A stretch of 64,000 bases of DNA from Thermoanaerobaculia bacterium (GCA_036005845.1 DASYQD010000018.1:13333-77332); one strand, 5' to 3'. Positions 21,996 through 29,360 are shown, counted from the stretch's first letter. Program-made: numbers and translations. Notes: generated from the letters alone by a model not told the origin.

Positions 21996-21999
<4 letters not shown>

Positions 22000-22646
22000 C
22001 GGTGGCACACCGAGCAGCTCGTGCGGCTGACGATCTTGTATTCCTTCATCAGCTCTGCGCGCCGCGCCGCGGAGATCAAAGCCGGGTCCCAGTTGGGGTT
22101 GAAGACTTCCTCGCGCGGCCGCACGTACTTCGCCGGGTCGCGATGGCAGCCGACGCACCACTCCATCTTCAGGCTCGACGCCTTCCAGGTCAGCGGCATG
22201 CGGCCGATGTCGCCGTGACAGGTGGTGCAGCCGATGCCCTTGGCGACGTGGATGCTGTGATTGAAGTAGACGAAGTCGGGCAGGTCATAGACGCGCCGCC
22301 AGTGCAGGGGAGTGCCGTCGCGGAAGCTCGCCCGCACCGGCTCGAGGATGGGCGAGTCGGCGAACAGCACCGAGTGGCAGCCCATGCAAGTGGCCGTCGG
22401 CGGGATGCCGGCGAAGGCGCTCTTCTCGACCGAGGTGTGGCAGTAGCGGCAGTCGAAGCCTTCCTCGCCGACGTGATGGTCGTGGCTGAACGGCACCGGC
22501 TGCTCGATCACCTGCCGCTCGCGCGTCACCGCCGGCGAGCGGTCGATCGCCATCGCCACCCACCCCGCGAACGCGATGAAGAAGATCAGCCCGAAGATGC
22601 TGACCCGCGAGATCGTGTTCGTGCTGGGGTGGAAGATCTGCGCCAT
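21996..22646 (-). CDS. actA: alternative complex III subunit ActA (pentahaem cytochrome c, membrane anchored)
   Basis: Five CXXCH motifs (CRYCH, CMGCH, CTTCH, CVGCH, CSVCH) after one N-terminal TM helix. Start ATG at 22646 (the track ORF is 36 aa longer). Confidence 0.9.
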
Positions 22647-22733
22647 CGCTCTCCCTGACTGCTGCCCAATCTGCGATGCGCCCCGCGAAACGCGGCGCCC
22701 AACATACCAGCACTCACGGCGGCACGTCCCGCC

Positions 22734-22756
22734 CCTTGTGCGCGGCCGGCACAAGG
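22734..22756. promoter_or_regulatory. perfect palindrome CCTTGTGC-N7-GCACAAGG in the divergent actA/ctaB intergenic region
   Basis: Lies 88-110 nt upstream of actA and ~106 nt upstream of ctaB. TGTGC/GCACA half-sites resemble CRP/FNR-family operators. Confidence 0.35.
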
Positions 22757-22861
22757 TATCGCGCGGCTATCGCTAGGTCAACACATGCCGCGCGATTGAC
22801 GGATGCAGCGTCGCCTTGTGATCGATGAGCGGCCGCAGACCGACTGCTATGCTCGCCGCCG

Positions 22862-23752
22862 ATGCGCGAGAGCACGCTCCAGGCGACGGCGGGAGTGCGC
22901 CTGCGCGATTTTCTCGGCCTCGCCAAGACGGGCATCACCGCGATGGTGGCGCTCTCGGCGGCGGCGGGGATGCTGCTCGCGGCCGACGACGGGCCGACCT
23001 CGCCGGCGCTGTGGTTCCACACCTTGCTCGGCACGGCACTGGTGGCTGCGGCGGCATCGGCACTCAACCAGGTCGTCGAGCGCGACGTCGACGGCTTGAT
23101 GCGCCGCACAGCGCAGCGGCCGCTGCCGGCGGGGCGGATGCAGGCCGATGCCGCGGTGGCGTTCGCGGCGCTCCTCGGCGGCGGCGGGCTGCTCGAGCTG
23201 GCGCTGGGCGCCAACCTGCTGGCGGCGTCGCTGGCGGCCGCGACGCTGGTCGGTTACGTCGCCGTCTACACACCGCTCAAGCGCGTCAGCTCGCTGTCGA
23301 CCGTCATCGGCGCGATCCCCGGCGCGGTGCCGCCGATGGTCGGCTGGGCAGCGGTGACCGGCACGCTCGGGCCCGGCGCGTGGGCGCTCTTCGCACTACT
23401 CTTCTTCTGGCAGATGCCGCACTTCCTCGCCATCGCCTGGCTCTACCGCTCCGACTACGCTCGCGGCGGCTTCCCGATGCTGTCAGTGGACGACGAAGGC
23501 GGCCTGCGCACGTCGCGGCAAGCGCTTCTGTACTGCGCGGCGCTCGTGCCGGTGAGCCTACTGCCTGCGGCACTCGGGCTCGCAGGCGCCGTCTACTTCG
23601 CCGGCGCGCTCATTGCTGGCGGCTGGTTCCTCGCCGCGAGCGCGGCGTTCGCGCTCGACCGCAGCGCGCCGGCCGCGAAGCGGCTGATGCTGGTCTCGGT
23701 GTTCTACCTGCCGGCGGTGCTTGCCGCGCTGGCGGCCGACCGGCTGATCTGA
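22862..23752 (+). CDS. ctaB: protohaem IX farnesyltransferase (haem O synthase)
   Basis: 296 aa polytopic UbiA-family protein with NQ..ERD.D..M.RT..RPLP motif. Confidence 0.9.
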   Translation: MRESTLQATAGVRLRDFLGLAKTGITAMVALSAAAGMLLAADDGPTSPALWFHTLLGTALVAAAASALNQVVERDVDGLMRRTAQRPLPAGRMQADAAVAFAALLGGGGLLELALGANLLAASLAAATLVGYVAVYTPLKRVSSLSTVIGAIPGAVPPMVGWAAVTGTLGPGAWALFALLFFWQMPHFLAIAWLYRSDYARGGFPMLSVDDEGGLRTSRQALLYCAALVPVSLLPAALGLAGAVYFAGALIAGGWFLAASAAFALDRSAPAAKRLMLVSVFYLPAVLAALAADRLI

Positions 23753-23916
23753 GCTGATCGCGGCTGCGCGGTGCTGGGTCGTAATGCCCTCACGAGAGCG
23801 TGTTCCCAGAGTGAGGCCCGCCGTGCTGCTCCGTGACGCCGGTCCGGCCCGCTACCAGTGACGGGGCTTTGCCCAGCAAATCGCTCCTGCCCAAATAATC
23901 GGCAGGCTGCCAAAGG

Positions 23917-24141
23917 TCACTTAGCGTCGGGAAGGATGTCCGCCGCGCGGAGCGCTAGCCGGCGCAGCCATGCGCTCAACTTCAAGCCGTCACGCGCGGC
24001 AGCAGCCTCAAGAGCGCGCTTCTGCTCGGCCTGGATGCGCATGCGCACGACGTCATCCTTGAGCGCCTTGCCGGCCGGCGGGCCGGCCCTCCTCTTCGCC
24101 TGGGTCACGGCGTTAGATTGTGGGCGGATGTAGCTACACAT
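23917..24141 (-). CDS. ribbon-helix-helix protein, MobC/CopG-like (relaxosome accessory or antitoxin-type)
   Basis: ...RRAGPPAGKALKDDVVRMRIQAEQKRALEAAAARDGLKLSAWLRRLAL. Start is uncertain: track ORF starts at 24234, and the ATG at 24141 gives 74 aa. A TGTAGCTACA palindrome abuts that ATG. Confidence 0.5.
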   Translation of the reverse strand: MCSYIRPQSNAVTQAKRRAGPPAGKALKDDVVRMRIQAEQKRALEAAAARDGLKLSAWLRRLALRAADILPDAK

Positions 24142-24604
24142 CAAGTCAGCGTCCGCCAATGGTAGTCGGGCACCTTGAGGTACTTCCGGAGCGCTCGACG
24201 CATGACCTCGCTCTCGCTGAGCAGAGTTGGCCATCCAGCGCGATCCCGGCCTGTTCGCCTATTACTATCCGCCAAGCGGGGCGGTCTTCGTCAGGTGCGT
24301 CCACTGCGCCAAGTGCGGCGAGGAGTCCGCCTTTGGGTTCACCACAGGCGCAGATGACCGTGAGCGATTGGCGCGGATCGCCCTGCCGCAGAGCGCCCTA
24401 AGCCAGGCTGTCACTTCAAATGACCAGCGCCGCCTTGTGGCGCGGCGCGAAGCCTCAGCGGCCGCTGCCGCTACCACCGCCCGCATGGCTTGCCCTGCGC
24501 CGCCTTCCTCGCCGTGGGCATCTTGTGGCGCCCTGGAGACGAGTGGCACGCAGCGGCGTGCATCTGCTATGTCGCGTCGGCTGGTGCCGCGCCAGAAACG
24601 GGCG

Positions 24605-24844
24605 CTATTGCTTAGTCGTCGCCGTCAGCTTCTTTGAAGGGAAGAAGTGCCAGAAGACCGGATAAAGAGTCCCGGTCAAGAAAGACTCCACTAGGGCGAT
24701 TGGCCATGAACGGCAAAAAAAGATGAGCGCCACGGCGAGGCCCAAGTACACAAATCCTGCCAAAAGAACGAGCCACACCTTGGCACCGATGTCGGCAATA
24801 ATCTTGTAGGCCTTAGCCTGCTCTTCGGTGATGCGCTCGGGCAT
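24605..24844 (-). CDS. small 2-TM membrane protein (island gene, unknown function)
   Basis: 79-86 aa depending on start (TTG 24865 or ATG 24844). Two hydrophobic helices. Low GC. Last gene of a three-gene minus-strand operon. Confidence 0.4.
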   Translation of the reverse strand: MPERITEEQAKAYKIIADIGAKVWLVLLAGFVYLGLAVALIFFCRSWPIALVESFLTGTLYPVFWHFFPSKKLTATTKQ

Positions 24845-24857
24845 GGCTGTCGGCAGC

Positions 24858-25220
24858 CTAGGCAACGACGCTGTAGACTTCGATTACCTGCAACTTGCGC
24901 GGATCGAATTGGCACTCCTCGCCTTCAGCCTCGCACACATGACAAACAACGGTTGCGGGCACGCGCTCGCCCGCCGGCACGTACTCAGCAATGTTCTTGT
25001 CGCGAGGGCAGAGATAGCCGTGCCGCTTGGCGAATAGGCCCTCTCTCACGGCGAGTTCGCATAACATATGAGCTACACGGTAAGGGACACGAAAGAAGCT
25101 GCGGATATTCTCGACGTAGATGTTTTGTGGATCGGTGTTGCGCATTAGCTCGGCACGGCGTGCGAACGCATCCCCAATCCAGCTCCTATCCATTGCGCCG
25201 ACGAATCTCTCGAACCACAT
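24858..25220 (-). CDS. Cys-rich hypothetical protein (possible zinc ribbon, CHVCEAEGEEC)
   Basis: 120 aa. Overlaps the upstream gene by 35 nt. No recognisable family. Confidence 0.4.
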   Translation of the reverse strand: MWFERFVGAMDRSWIGDAFARRAELMRNTDPQNIYVENIRSFFRVPYRVAHMLCELAVREGLFAKRHGYLCPRDKNIAEYVPAGERVPATVVCHVCEAEGEECQFDPRKLQVIEVYSVVA

Positions 25221-26043
25221 AGGCCGCCCCTTGGTCTAAATGGGAAAACGTCCTGAAGCTAACGATGCCCTTGGTCGGGTCTACTGTGAAGTGATCCAGG
25301 CCGATGCTGTCCCCCATCCACTTGAAAGTGGTGGCAAGCAGCGGCTTGTCGCGCAGATCGTCGTATAGAGATGGATCGTCTCTCTTCACCAAGTAGTTTC
25401 CGTCCATCACCTGACGCGTCGTCGCGCGCGCCTTCTTAAACTGCACAGCCGGGGCGTCGATCAAACCTTCGTCCCAAAGCGCCTTCACTCCCTCGTTCAA
25501 GTCCTCGGGATGTACATCGGAAAGGCCGAGAGAATCGAACACAAGGATCTCCACCATCGCTTCGTCTAGATCCTTGATGCTTCGTATGACTCGACCCGGC
25601 TCGTACTGAGCTGCAAGATTCTTCTCCATAATCGTAAAGCGCAGTTCTAAACTGTTCCGACCGCACGTGACGTGCACGGGCCAGAGATAATCGACGGCCT
25701 TCTTCTCTAGTGGATCGGCAAGGTAGACAACGTAGGGAAGGTCCAGCAGATAGAACCAGCTACGGCTCGTCCTAGCGGGGTCGCTTGCCAGCAACCGACC
25801 ATCGTCAAGCAACCCCTCAGGCAGATCGCGTACTGTGACGTCCGAACACCTGTGGAGGTGCACATGGTGCTTTGTCGTGAGATGGTGCGTGATGATAAAC
25901 GCGTCGACCTCGCCCCCGTCGCGGGAGCCCAGGATTGCTTCGATGACCTGTGCCTTGGTGCCGGTCGGTAGATCGAAGTACTGCCGCAGCTGTTCAAGGG
26001 GATACAGATCTAGTAAGCGAACGGCAAGTGGATTCTGAGCCAC
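25186..26043 (-). CDS. hypothetical protein (285 aa, no recognisable domain), first gene of island operon
   Basis: The track ORF extends to 26448 through high-GC sequence. A GTG at 26043 is preceded by a strong Shine-Dalgarno (GGAGGGGGC-GTG). Low GC. Confidence 0.5.
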   Translation of the reverse strand: MAQNPLAVRLLDLYPLEQLRQYFDLPTGTKAQVIEAILGSRDGGEVDAFIITHHLTTKHHVHLHRCSDVTVRDLPEGLLDDGRLLASDPARTSRSWFYLLDLPYVVYLADPLEKKAVDYLWPVHVTCGRNSLELRFTIMEKNLAAQYEPGRVIRSIKDLDEAMVEILVFDSLGLSDVHPEDLNEGVKALWDEGLIDAPAVQFKKARATTRQVMDGNYLVKRDDPSLYDDLRDKPLLATTFKWMGDSIGLDHFTVDPTKGIVSFRTFSHLDQGAAYVVREIRRRNG

Positions 26044-26233
26044 GCCCCCTCCAGACCTGTTGAACCAGTGGACTACGGCAGACCATACCGCAGATCGTGA
26101 CGAGAGGAGCCAGGGCGTCACGGGCGGCCGTGGATGCGCCGGCCGCCAGTCTAGCGCACTCCTCGGCCAGACCCTGGTCTGCGACCGACCTCCGGACAGG
26201 CGGCACATCCCGCAAGCCACGAATCGCCCCGGG

Positions 26234-26262
26234 TTGACTTGTCGAAATGTCGCCAATAAAAT
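26234..26262 (+). promoter_or_regulatory. sigma70-like promoter (TTGACT-17nt-TAAAAT) driving a near-leaderless transcript for the 26269 ORF
   Basis: Consensus-like -35 and -10 boxes with 17-nt spacer. ATG at 26269 is 7 nt after the -10. Direct TGTCG repeats and a TGTCGC/GCGACA inverted repeat overlap the -10 and start codon. Confidence 0.5.
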
Positions 26263-26268
26263 AGGCCC

Positions 26269-26910
26269 ATGAGCGACAACGACCACCACCCCGACGGGAT
26301 AGCGAAGCGCGACAGCCTCACTCCGCTCAACGCCTGCGTCCACGCCGCGCTGGAGCACGGCGTGGGGCTGGCTCAGGCGTTCTTTGAAGGGCGCCAGCTT
26401 GACCCGTGGCTGTTCGCTCACATTGTGCGCTACGGGGTGCTGGAGCACCTACCGGACGCCATCGTCAACGTGGACGATTACGGCGTCACACGCAACGCCA
26501 TGTGCGGCGTGGAGATTCACGCTGACGGTTGCTCCATTCGGATCTGGAAGAAGCCCAGGGCCGAGGATGAGTATCTCCAGCCTCCAGGAGAGTCGGAGGT
26601 CCGCCAATCCTTCTACTGGCAGCAGATCCCTCTGCCTTTCGCAGTCGAGCAGCAGCTACCTCAGCCGGACAACTTGGCGTATGTCTGGGAAGCCTTGCCC
26701 TCCGGGACAATGAATCTGTTCCTCGTCAAGCCGAGCGGCATCGAAGGAATCTGGAAGCCGGGTCTATTCGAGTGGGCCGTTCCGGTGCCGCATCCGGCGG
26801 AGCTGGTCACCGTCGGTACCGACTTCCTCGAGGGCGACGAGGACGAAGATCTGGATATCGACCTGCCAAACGCGGGTTCTGGTGGCGGCGAGCCCAACGG
26901 CGGAGCCTAA
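26269..26910 (+). CDS. hypothetical protein with acidic C-terminal tail (213 aa)
   Basis: ORF begins immediately after the promoter. No recognisable family. Co-directional and adjacent to the XRE/ImmA-like gene. Confidence 0.5.
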   Translation: MSDNDHHPDGIAKRDSLTPLNACVHAALEHGVGLAQAFFEGRQLDPWLFAHIVRYGVLEHLPDAIVNVDDYGVTRNAMCGVEIHADGCSIRIWKKPRAEDEYLQPPGESEVRQSFYWQQIPLPFAVEQQLPQPDNLAYVWEALPSGTMNLFLVKPSGIEGIWKPGLFEWAVPVPHPAELVTVGTDFLEGDEDEDLDIDLPNAGSGGGEPNGGA

Positions 26911-26917
26911 GGCAGTC

Positions 26918-28024
26918 ATGGCGGCAGTCAACGGAGAACGCGTCAAGCAGGCGCGCGAGATACGAGCGCTTACGCAGGGTGAGCTTGCAGAGCGCATCGG
27001 AGTCTCGCAGCCAACCATTTCGCTCATCGAACAAGGAGCGCAGCAGCCATCCGAAGGGGTGCTGCAAGCGCTGGTGCTGGCGACGGGCTTTCCTGTGGGC
27101 TTCTTTCAGAAAGGGAAGGGGCCGGACTTTCCGTCGGGGTCTATGCTCTATCGCAAGTCGAAGAAACTACCGAGCACGCCAGCCAGTCAGTTGCGGCAGT
27201 CGGCGCGGCTTGCTCTGGAGCTGGTCCAAGCCCTCGGCACTCGATTCAAGCCGATCCCCGTGCGGATACCGCTGGTAGGCAGCGGTGATCCGATAGAGGC
27301 CGCGCATGTCGGCCGGTCGGTCCTGGGAGCATCGCCAGACGGGCCGATGACCGGAGTCATTCGGCGCCTGGAGCGCGCCGGGGTGCTTGTCGTATTCCTC
27401 CCCTCGGCGCCCGACGGATTCGACGGCTTCTCCGCTTGGTCCGACGAGGGCGACGGACACGAGAGGCGCCCAATCATTTGCCTTAAGCACGGCGTGCCGG
27501 GCGACCGTCTTAGGCTCACGGCGGCGGAGGAGCTGGGCCACCTGATGATGCATCAGGACTTCCTAGGCGGTTTGAAGGAGCTGGAGCAGGAAGCCGATGA
27601 GTTTGCAGGAGAGTTTCTATTTCCGCAGAGCGAGATGAAGGAGCAACTCAGGCTGCCGATAACACTCGCGCACTTGGGCGAGCTCAAAGCGCGTTGGGGC
27701 GTCTCCATCGCTGCCATCGCACACCTTGCCGAGCAGCGGGGATTGATCAGCGACCGCCAAAAGCGGTACGTGCGGGCAAAGCTGCATGATCGCGGGTGGC
27801 TGCATACGGAGCCGATCCATATCCCGGTAGAGGCCCCCAAGCTTTGGCGCCAGATGGCGGAGGGCATCTTCGGAGCGCCGGTTGACCATAAGCGCTTGGC
27901 GCGCGAGTTTGAGGTCTCCTCTGGCTTCGTTCAACAGTTGATCGAGGTCAACCGGCCGCTAGACGCGAGACCCATTGCTCCTAGCTCTCAGGTTCTTCTG
28001 CGCTTCGACCGCCGTCGCGCCTGA
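26918..28024 (+). CDS. XRE-family HTH fused to ImmA/IrrE-like (COG2856, M78-type) metallopeptidase domain
   Basis: N-terminal HTH (QAREIRALTQGELAERIGVSQPTISLIEQG) and central AAEELGHLMMH. The latter is an ImmA-like motif with the first His replaced by Glu. 368 aa from ATG 26918. Confidence 0.75.
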   Translation: MAAVNGERVKQAREIRALTQGELAERIGVSQPTISLIEQGAQQPSEGVLQALVLATGFPVGFFQKGKGPDFPSGSMLYRKSKKLPSTPASQLRQSARLALELVQALGTRFKPIPVRIPLVGSGDPIEAAHVGRSVLGASPDGPMTGVIRRLERAGVLVVFLPSAPDGFDGFSAWSDEGDGHERRPIICLKHGVPGDRLRLTAAEELGHLMMHQDFLGGLKELEQEADEFAGEFLFPQSEMKEQLRLPITLAHLGELKARWGVSIAAIAHLAEQRGLISDRQKRYVRAKLHDRGWLHTEPIHIPVEAPKLWRQMAEGIFGAPVDHKRLAREFEVSSGFVQQLIEVNRPLDARPIAPSSQVLLRFDRRRA

Positions 28025-28087
28025 ATCGCAGGCTTGACACGTAGCTCGTTGGTAACCACACCGTGGATACTAATTGGAGACGTGGCG

Positions 28088-28519
28088 ATGGACCCAAGAG
28101 AACGGCGCAGACTGGTGATAACGGTAACGGTCCGAATCACTCGGAAGGGTAACGCATGGACTGTTCCTTCTCAGTGAGCGTCCCGAACGTTGGACCACCT
28201 CGGGGAAGTGGCGGTCACCCACCGTTGGCACTCTCGGATGGTGACTGGTAACGATGTCAAGTTTCGCGGGCCGCGGTGGAGAAGCTGCGAGCAGAGCGGG
28301 TGGCGAGATGCGCGTGTGGGGGAGCACCGTGCTAATCAAAACGCTGGCCGAGTACGACCGGTCGACGAGTACCGGCTCGCCGGCTACCCGCTCGTGCTGA
28401 GCACTGGCAAGAAGCTGTTCTCCGACAGGTTCGCGTCACCAGACTTCACCCTGACCGAGTCGCGCGCCGTGCGATCCGGAGGCCTGGTCAACACCTACCG
28501 TGGCGCCGGCTCAGGCTGA
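28088..28519 (+). pseudogene. frameshifted/degraded RibD C-terminal domain (dihydrofolate reductase-family) gene
   Basis: C-terminal frame gives VDEYRLAGYPLVLSTGKKLF...LTESRAVRSGGLVNTY (RibD_C hallmark). Upstream part is in another frame (..VLIKTLAEYD..). A short ORF from ATG ~28088 stops after 29 codons. A TTGACA lies at ~28035. Confidence 0.45.
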
Positions 28520-28672
28520 TCAACCACACCGACAGCTCGTCTCGGCGTTCTGCTTGCCGGCGGTGGTCGCCGCGCTGGCGGGTGACGGGCTGATTGAGCT
28601 GAGCGCGGCGGCGCGGATACGGGACCGCCTGGCGGGGCAGCACGTGATTCACGTGCTAATCTGGGAGCCGCC

Positions 28673-28906
28673 ATGAAGACGAACGTCACGCTCAAGCTCG
28701 ATGCGGATCTCCTCCGCGAGGCGCGCGTGGTGGCAGCCGAAGAGGGGCGATCGATGAGCGCTCTTCTCACCGATCAACTCGAAGGCATCGTGCGCGAGCG
28801 GAAGGCCTTCGTTAAGGCGCGGCGGCGGGCACTTGCCCGTCTCCGAGAGGGTCTCGACCTCCAGTGGACACCGCCCGCATCGCGGGACGAGCTCCATGAG
28901 CGATAG
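28673..28906 (+). CDS. vapB: VapB-type RHH/AbrB-like antitoxin
   Basis: 77 aa (MKTNVTLKLDADLLREARVVAAEEGRSMSALL). Overlaps vapC by 11 nt. Confidence 0.7.
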   Translation: MKTNVTLKLDADLLREARVVAAEEGRSMSALLTDQLEGIVRERKAFVKARRRALARLREGLDLQWTPPASRDELHER

Positions 28907-29348
28907 ACACTTCGTCGACACCAACATCCTGATGTACGCCCACGACGCTGCCACGGGCGAGAAGCATCAAATGGCCCGGGCGCTGGTGGAGCAGTTGTGG
29001 GAGACGAGGTCGGGTGTCGTCAGCACCCAGGTCCTTCAGGAGCTGGCGGTCAACTTGCGGAGGAAGGCCAAGAAGCCACTCGATGCAAGGACGACTCGTG
29101 ACGTCGTGTCCGACTACCTTGCGTGGCACGTTGTCGTGAATGGCGGGGAGTCGGTTCTCGAAGCGCTCGATCTCGAAGCGCGGCATCGCATCTCTTTCTG
29201 GGATGCCCTCCTGATACAGGCCGCGAACGCTTCTGGCGCTGAGATCCTCTACTCCGAGGATCTGTCGGACGGCCAACGTTACGGATCGGTACGAGTCATC
29301 AATCCGTTTCGAGTGAAGGCCCGCGCCGCTCCGCCATCGCCCGGCTAG
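28896..29348 (+). CDS. vapC: PIN-domain toxin VapC
   Basis: MSDRHFVDTNILMYA...FWDALLIQAA, 150 aa from ATG 28896 (the track ORF starts 21 codons earlier). Confidence 0.85.
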   Translation: MSDRHFVDTNILMYAHDAATGEKHQMARALVEQLWETRSGVVSTQVLQELAVNLRRKAKKPLDARTTRDVVSDYLAWHVVVNGGESVLEALDLEARHRISFWDALLIQAANASGAEILYSEDLSDGQRYGSVRVINPFRVKARAAPPSPG

Positions 29349-29360
29349 AATCCGCGGCCG

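Follow-up and report, generated by a model that had tools for sequence, protein, structure and literature searches.

A conserved, putatively Rex-type operator dyad upstream of actA at the ACIII-caa3 locus of Thermoanaerobaculia and other Acidobacteriota

The operators of the NADH/NAD+-sensing repressor Rex are the closest described counterparts of the element reported here, and the systems of Streptomyces, Bacillus, Staphylococcus, Thermus, Thermotoga and Desulfovibrio were used for comparison. Rex recognizes TTGTGAAN4TTCACAA, an 18-bp inverted repeat located near -35/-10 elements, and is released by NADH (PMC8376106). The Staphylococcus aureus operator, TTGTGAAW4TTCACAA, contains critical positions at 4-5 and a preferentially A/T-rich spacer, and altering the spacer length strongly impairs binding (PMC2883068). 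In Streptomyces avermitilis, operons of aerobic metabolism are under direct repression by Rex via such operators (PMC5355995), and the predicted Rex regulon of Desulfovibrio includes qrcABCD, a relative of alternative complex III (ACIII) (PMC4045070). The CRP family provides the second point of comparison, with recognition sequences of the form AWTGTRA-N6-TYACAWT or AAATGTGA-N6-TCACATTT (PMC8465061). In the Rex literature, as far as it is searchable, neither the phylum Acidobacteriota nor actA as a target was found.

Rex homologues are annotated in Acidobacteriota genomes, a phylum that the comparative Rex regulon study of Ravcheev (2012) reportedly did not cover. A related regulatory logic, in which a redox-linked regulator acts on an aerobic respiratory promoter, is displayed by the FNR/ArcA repression of cyo and ndh in Escherichia coli, where FNR represses both. 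The FNR box is TTGAT-N4-ATCAA.

The window, i.e. the whole 64,000-nucleotide stretch of DNA that was analysed, has a composition of ~69% GC and contains an inverted repeat between two divergent genes. The features discussed below are the following.

21996 to 22646, minus strand (ATG at 22646): actA, a pentahaem-type cytochrome c (Pfam Cytochrome_C7/c3).
22862 to 23752, plus strand (ATG at 22862): ctaB, haem O synthase of the UbiA family (Pfam UbiA, 1.3e-53).
22734 to 22756, no strand: putative operator dyad CCTTGTGC-GCGGCCG-GCACAAGG, with conserved arms and a free spacer.
22734 to 22741, 22742 to 22748 and 22749 to 22756: left arm CCTTGTGC, spacer GCGGCCG and right arm GCACAAGG of the dyad.
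22736 to 22754: dyad core TTGTGC-N7-GCACAA, which written as 7-N5-7 is TTGTGCn-N5-CGCACAA.
22776 to 22781, minus strand: predicted -35 hexamer TTGACC of the actA promoter P1, which contains GTCAA and belongs to a conserved (G)TTGAC island.
22753 to 22758, minus strand: predicted -10 hexamer TACCTT of P1, within a conserved GATA(C/G)CTTGTG block and overlapping the dyad arm by 4 nt.
22693 to 22713, minus strand: conserved block GTGCTGGTATGTTGGGCGCCG with the extended -10-like TGGTATGTT (22701-22709), found in most close relatives.
22845 to 22853, plus strand: predicted ctaB extended -10 TGCTATGCT, ending 8 nt before the ATG.
22796 to 22800, plus strand: TTGAC, the partner of GTCAA, with no counterpart at this place in any relative.

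An earlier, sequence-only reading had described an 8-N7-8 palindrome and a GTCAA-N14-TTGAC pair between divergent actA and ctaB genes. Both repeats are present where it placed them, and the two gene calls hold by Pfam and operon context. actA is the first gene of an ACIII-SCO1-COX2 (caa3-type) gene string that continues on the minus strand with an ActB-like Fe-S protein, NrfD/ActC, ActD, a cytochrome c, SCO1 and COX2. The homologues of ctaB carry the name haem O synthase, and the nearest homologues of the flanking genes belong to metagenome bins of Thermoanaerobaculia (Acidobacteriota). On the other side of ctaB, the stretch at ~23760-29350, between ctaB and SCO1/DUF420, displays a GC content of 0.60-0.63 as compared with ~0.70 and carries a NikA-like gene, an HTH_3-Peptidase_M78 (ImmA/IrrE-type) gene, a DUF6364-PIN toxin-antitoxin pair and small ORFs. 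It looks like an inserted mobile island, because ctaB, SCO1 and DUF420 are contiguous in the relatives L082, L085, L087 and L175-L179.

The dyad is preceded by ...CGCC and followed by TATCG..., and read on the actA strand it is the 19-bp, 7-N5-7 element TTGTGCC-GGCCG-CGCACAA. Perfect repeats of this length are common in this DNA: the 64-kb window contains ~50 different inverted repeats with perfect 8-bp arms and a loop of 0-12 nt. Simulated 215-nt regions of the same composition contain at least one with p = 0.107, which falls to p = 0.017 when a minimum of 3 A/T per arm is required. The earlier claim that the palindrome was very unlikely by chance was thus overstated; taken alone, at p ~0.02-0.11 per 215-nt region, the 8-N7-8 palindrome is suggestive and mildly unusual. 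It is raised above chance because orthologous loci conserve it, and not because it is improbable. The frequency of such repeats, at p ~0.1 per intergenic region, speaks for a chance palindrome in GC-rich intergenic DNA, an explanation whose probability is nonetheless negligible, refuted as it is by conservation of the orthologous position across lineages with unalignable flanks. The second repeat fares differently. GTCAA (22777-22781) and TTGAC (22796-22800), separated by 14 nt, are at chance level, since 5-bp inverted repeats spaced by 10-20 nt are expected in 96% of the simulated 215-nt regions. The suggestion that the pair forms a second operator or the ctaB -35 is not borne out, GTCAA being the reverse complement of the conserved TTGAC(C), the predicted actA -35, and the TTGAC partner being conserved in no relative.

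Motif scanning of the 64-kb window revealed a single exact copy of the N7 dyad, the other match carrying 3 mismatches and being at chance level; a dispersed REP-like repeat was rejected on this copy number. The 18-bp Rex consensus has no match in the whole window at up to 3 mismatches. Around the predicted actA -35 there is also a perfect 10-nt inverted repeat, ATCGCGCGGC/GCCGCGCGAT (22758-22767 and 22787-22796; simulation p ~0.016), for which the relatives show no conservation, and in L002 a 6-bp repeat of another sequence, TTCGCG/CGCGAA, flanks this -35. Similarly, a lone TTGTGA at 22816-22821 is not conserved in relatives.

Orthologous loci were collected via CtaB and via ActA homologues. 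The motif TTGTGC-N7-GCACAA is found in five distinct sequences (the window, L002, L171, L091/L180 and L082/L181), with spacers CGGCCGC, CGACCGC, GAGCCAC, TCATCAC and CCGCCGC that vary freely. The only change in the arms is a single T-to-C substitution at the critical position 4 of the left arm in L082/L181. The right arm CGCACAAG is invariant in all five diverged sequences, unlike the variable 7-nt spacer and downstream flank. In an alignment of eight sequences, TTGAC, CGTGATA(C/G)CTTGTG, CACAAG and GTGCTGGTATGGTGGGCGCCG stand out as islands in DNA that varies freely between them, which is a classic footprint pattern. The sister lineages, at 79-86% CtaB identity, carry 18-bp forms at the same place, either TTGTGAC-N4-GTCACAA or TTGTGAA-N4-TTCACAA. 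These are TTGTGACGGTCGTCACAA in L087, L176, L178 and L182, TTGCGACCGTCGTCACAA in L183, TTGTGACGATCGTCACAA in L085 and TTGTGAATGCATTCACAA in L004. As compared with the sisters, the window form has one additional base and an A to C and T to G exchange at the inner half-site positions. The window form is considered a derived version because the sister lineages carry 18-bp forms at the same place, and the exchange is symmetric, so that the dyad stays a perfect 8+8 palindrome.

The wider distribution of the element was determined in 80 species-representative genomes with an ActA relative at 54-93% identity, 71 of which name Acidobacteriota or one of its lineages in the genome title, by scoring the 400 nt ahead of actA for mismatches to TTGTGAA-N4-TTCACAA. 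At most one mismatch (13/14 or better) was found in 21 of the 80 species, and 20 of these are Acidobacteriota of several classes with the actA dyad, L168 (Bacterium HR16) being a separate match. The other loci have at least 3 mismatches or no match. None of 73 control coding segments matches, even at up to 4 mismatches. In 1.2 Mb of locus DNA, 32 of the 34 matches with up to 2 mismatches lie upstream of actA; in this DNA as a whole, ~4 matches would be expected by chance from base-4 odds. A site-like match after ctaB in L045 lies within a low-complexity repeat and was dismissed. The element is patchy (21/80 species), as is the gain and loss of Rex operators between lineages. In three Vicinamibacterales loci (L118, L141 and L169) the sequence TTGATCCTTTTTTCACAA is located ~85-110 nt upstream of actA; the right half-site is retained and the left half is replaced, and this element is possibly a half-decayed or re-specified operator.

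Fifteen distinct sites yield the consensus TTGTGAAAATTTTCACAA, whose A/T-rich centre is displayed in GC-rich genomes. G3, G5, A6, T13, C14, A15, C16 and A17 are invariant, and the deviations (TT, CA, AA and CT pairs) are one-sided and not compensatory, which argues for a protein site and against a hairpin. A nucleic-acid hairpin, whether a 5'-terminal mRNA stem-loop, an attenuator/terminator or a cruciform, would agree with the 8-bp GC-rich stem, which folds on both strands, with the fully palindromic 18-22 nt versions of some relatives (e.g. GCTTGTGAATGCATTCACAAGC) and with the A-T to C-G change at positions 7/12, which looks compensatory. It is very improbable, as the 15 sites conserve sequence rather than pairing, the dyad of one class lies in the predicted, untranscribed -35/-10 spacer, and the predicted start of the window clade falls inside the dyad. 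Moreover, the dyad region folds no better than shuffles on either strand (z = -0.42 and -0.38), Rfam scanning of it gave nothing near threshold, and a strict promoter/terminator scan revealed no terminator at the dyad and no T-tail. A structured RNA or intrinsic terminator was rejected on these tests and on the lack of compensatory changes. From its pattern of conservation, the dyad is judged to be a protein-binding site conserved by evolution.

The consensus TTGTGAAAATTTTCACAA reproduces all 14 specified positions of TTGTGAA-N4-TTCACAA, including positions 1-2, 7, 12 and 17-18. At the orthologous place of the window dyad, the Rex consensus is matched at 14 of 14 positions in L004 and at 12 of 14 in L085, L087, L176, L178 and L182, and the distant lineages also share the A/T-rich centre of Rex operators (AAGT, AACT, AAAT and ATTT). 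The targets are likewise comparable, a respiratory operon in each case: the predicted qrcABCD site of Desulfovibrio and ACIII-caa3 here. In contrast, the window version departs from the canonical Rex operator and counts against the Rex assignment. It is 19 bp long (7-N5-7) with one additional spacer base, positions 6-7 and 12-13 are changed, with C/G replacing A/T at positions 6/13, and the centres of its clade are GC-rich (GGCCG, GACCG, AGCCA and CATCA). The single occurrence within the 64-kb window points in the same direction, no second site being present.

The sequence-only reading had likened the half-sites to those of the CRP/FNR family with atypical spacing. The TGTG...CACA type and a spacing one base over the canonical one are upheld, whereas the assignment to that family gives way to Rex, which fits better. 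A CRP/FNR-family dimer responding to cAMP, O2, NO or another ligand, and either repressing P1 or activating a downstream extended -10 promoter, is accordingly a rather unlikely reading, with points on both sides. The half-sites are shared with CRP-type sites (E. coli CRP; Thermus SdrP/TTHA1359), the relatives also share the 6-bp spacing, and the family consensus resembles CRP-family recognition sequences (PMC8465061). The core TGTGA-N6-TCACA is perfect in the sites of ~18-20 species, and a protein of this family may bind them, its core being a subset of the consensus of the actA sites. Physiologically, repression of an aerobic oxidase operon by an O2-sensing protein like FNR would also be sensible. 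Against this, the TT..AA outer pairs (positions 1-2 and 17-18) and A7/T12 that are conserved in the actA sites are foreign to the CRP consensus, and together with the A/T-rich centre they fit Rex better. The window sequence TGTGC-N7-GCACA is neither TGTGA-N6-TCACA (CRP type) nor TTGAT-N4-ATCAA (FNR type), and no FNR box is found at the actA dyad. The tested CRP-family protein, SdrP, did not tolerate a 7-bp spacer in vitro (PMC8465061). The confinement of sites to actA in the 1.2 Mb of locus DNA is also unlike a global CRP regulon. Thus, a small Rex-like regulon would account better than CRP for the TT/AA ends, A7/T12, the W-rich centre and the actA-only sites.

The dyad remains with actA when the gene order changes. 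In L082/L181 a CLIPPER/DUF7933 gene (8427-9764 in L082 and 313-1650 in L181) and in L085/L086 a TonB_C gene (8466-9797 in L085) separates actA from ctaB; in both cases the dyad still precedes the actA ATG by ~125 nt, and ctaB is without a dyad. In distant Acidobacteriota the actA dyad is present under varied upstream neighbours, including an ABC ATPase, a TonB-dependent receptor and an M61 peptidase, and in ten distant loci no regulator gene directly precedes actA. By this demonstrated linkage, the dyad is assigned to actA and the ACIII-caa3 operon, and ctaB is regarded as a divergent neighbour and not as a dyad target. In the L082/L181 lineage the actA -35 (TTGGCG) and the left arm of the dyad (TTGCGC) are both degraded, which may reflect read-through from the inserted upstream gene.

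A separate conserved element precedes ctaB. The extended -10 CTGCTATGCT (TGnTAnnnT), ending 8 nt before the ATG, is kept in 9 relatives and is seen in L002, L004, L082, L085, L087, L171, L175 and L178. The form CTG(C/G)TAT(G/A/C)(C/T)T occupies the same distance from the ctaB ATG even in L082, L085 and L175, three relatives with unrelated upstream DNA. This persistence argues that ctaB has its own promoter, ~100 bp from the dyad. No Shine-Dalgarno sequence is found before ctaB (window 22845-22861), and the ctaB mRNA of the window clade is probably leaderless or near-leaderless. Over the ctaB start (22824-22876) there is a sub-threshold Rfam match to sul1 RNA (20.9 bits, gathering threshold 36.2 bits, E = 0.25), which is probably noise. 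The earlier proposal that the dyad co-controls ctaB did not hold up, given that the dyad follows actA when genes intervene and that ctaB has its own conserved extended -10.

The putative actA promoter P1 is formed by the (G)TTGAC island, which is conserved in eight aligned relatives, and by the -10 block, which in relatives takes the extended form TGATA(C/G)CTT. The two are separated by 17 nt in the window and 17-19 nt in relatives, and the spacer following (G)TTGAC is not conserved. With TTGACC-17-TACCTT as promoter, the start is predicted at ~22746 and the dyad would extend from ~-10 to +13. The assignment of P1 is comparative, since it is not called when the window region is scanned strictly for the sigma-70 consensus. 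The other lineage classes all display TAnnnT -10 hexamers beside or overlapping the dyad, as judged by inspection. The dyad of class 1 (Vicinamibacterales, Solibacteraceae and others) sits within TTGACA-18-CATTAT or TTGACA-18-CATAAT, promoters that were called by a prediction tool in L126 and L148 with 10/12 and 11/12 consensus matches. In class 2 (other Thermoanaerobaculia) TTGCAC-17-TAGGAT is followed after 7 nt by the dyad, and in class 3 TACAAT is followed by it after 4 nt, both by inspection. In the window clade TTGACC is followed after 17-19 nt by (TGn)TA(C/G)CTT, and the dyad begins with the last bases of this element. Thus, in every lineage the dyad would overlap the predicted core promoter, either in the -35/-10 spacer or across -10/+1, a position expected of a repressor. 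Rex operators similarly overlap core promoter elements (PMC8376106), as is predicted for the actA dyad.

The conserved block at 22693-22713 may represent either a further promoter, P2, or an element of the 5'-UTR. L183 retains P1 and the dyad but lacks this block, and the distance from the dyad to the downstream hexamer is 26-29 nt, a variation of 3 nt among relatives; P1 is for these two reasons taken as the constant partner of the dyad. A weak -35 together with the downstream extended -10 TGGTATGTT resembles an activator-dependent promoter and lends the CRP/FNR reading some support; activation from the dyad, whose centre would lie at ~-47.5 to -51 relative to this candidate -10 on the predicted positions, is formally possible. 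This range, with its 3-nt variation, corresponds to neither of the activator positions -41.5 and -61.5, and in the predicted architecture the dyad instead overlaps the -10/+1 region of P1. The presence of the dyad without the downstream block in L183 and its location within the predicted -35/-10 spacer in one class are further points against CRP-type activation. A promoter-like element, AGTCCCTTGAAC-17-TATGTT, occurs at the same relative place in other Thermoanaerobaculia (L094, L095, L100, L102 and L130), with the dyad centre at ~-50.5.

The preferred reading, to which we give an even chance, is that the dyad serves as operator for the repression of ACIII-caa3 by a dimeric regulator of redox type, most probably Rex. 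The arms TTGTGC/GCACAA would be bound by a repressor dimer with winged-helix or HTH domains, and the bound protein would keep RNA polymerase off P1 because the dyad covers the predicted -10 hexamer and start (~-10 to +13). The ACIII-caa3 operon would then be shut until the signal of the regulator releases the protein. A Rex-type protein is the most likely candidate because the 18-bp dyad kept ahead of actA in many Acidobacteriota is identical to the Rex operator consensus, and such a protein would de-repress ACIII-caa3 upon NADH accumulation. The 7-N5-7 element of the window would be a local, one-base-longer descendant of the 18-bp TTGTGAA-N4-TTCACAA. What we infer from these comparisons is where the promoter and transcription start lie, that the operon is repressed, and which regulator and signal are involved. 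The earlier suggestion of a redox-type regulator tied to ACIII-caa3 is retained as the best guess, given the match to the Rex consensus upstream of actA.

The regulator gene was sought with E. coli CRP and Bacillus subtilis Rex as tblastn queries and with a four-sequence Rex profile for hmmsearch, the Rex sequences having been validated against NCBIfam. No Rex gene (PF06971 + PF02629) was found in the 64-kb window or related loci (tblastn of 170 loci, hmmsearch of 179 loci), and E. coli CRP gave no match to a Crp/Fnr-like gene at E < 1 in the window and 170 loci, a result that also weighs against a CRP/FNR-type regulator. A weak match in L097 proved to be a NuoI-like ferredoxin and was rejected. 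The regulator is consequently proposed from the DNA motif, as no Rex or Crp/Fnr gene was found in the loci searched. Among the matches listed in a profile search for Rex members of Acidobacteriota, only Bacillus and Streptomyces were present; a search of Rex representatives comprised 1,742 clusters, whose members that were looked up mostly had no names. P0389 and its relatives form a large clade of environmental Rex proteins from Candidatus Eisenbacteria, and Rex is therefore common beyond the Gram-positives as well, in at least one uncultured phylum of soil.

The 19-bp form allows several readings. A tentative one is that, in the window clade, an 18-bp Rex/CRP-type operator was remodelled to the 19-bp 7-N5-7 element, which is constant in at least five diverged genomes. 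Altered half-site spacing impairs binding of canonical Rex (PMC2883068) and was not tolerated by a CRP-family protein (PMC8465061) in vitro. If remodelling occurred, either the cognate dimeric regulator would have co-evolved to the new half-site spacing or a different regulator would have taken over, and the locus would represent a natural, datable case of a change in operator geometry. These same in vitro effects of spacer changes, together with the non-canonical 7-N5-7 geometry and position 6, would also suit a decaying relic, in which a 1-bp insertion damaged the operator and the arms are kept because they double as -10, discriminator and initial transcribed sequence. The overlap of the left arm with the -10 hexamer and the L082/L181 lineage, with its T-to-C change at critical position 4 and degenerate -35, are consistent with it. 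Decay is nevertheless improbable, as the inner bases changed symmetrically and the perfect 8+8 palindrome persists. A pure relic is disfavoured in particular by the right arm CGCACAAG, which is free of any promoter role and yet constant in the five diverged sequences. A co-evolved regulator, a regulator takeover and a weakened relic partly kept by promoter constraints thus remain as readings of the 7-N5-7 form.

The dyad is a cis-regulatory element of an ordinary kind, a transcription-factor operator with a probable repressor role, and within a known operator family it is new in spacing, phylum and target. ACIII and the caa3 oxidase form the main quinol-to-oxygen route in many soil Acidobacteriota, which are mostly uncultured, and nothing was found on the regulation of the ACIII-caa3 operon in this phylum in the searchable literature. 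If the remodelling reading is true, alternative complex III of Acidobacteriota would with this dyad gain its first defined cis-regulatory element and regulon link. The Rex consensus in a conserved operator embedded in the promoter provides a testable handle on the binding protein and on its release by NADH, and the clade-specific version with one additional base pair constitutes a small natural experiment in repressor-operator co-evolution. A Rex-type operator at this place suggests that the aerobic respiratory capacity of these bacteria may be tuned to the cellular redox state.
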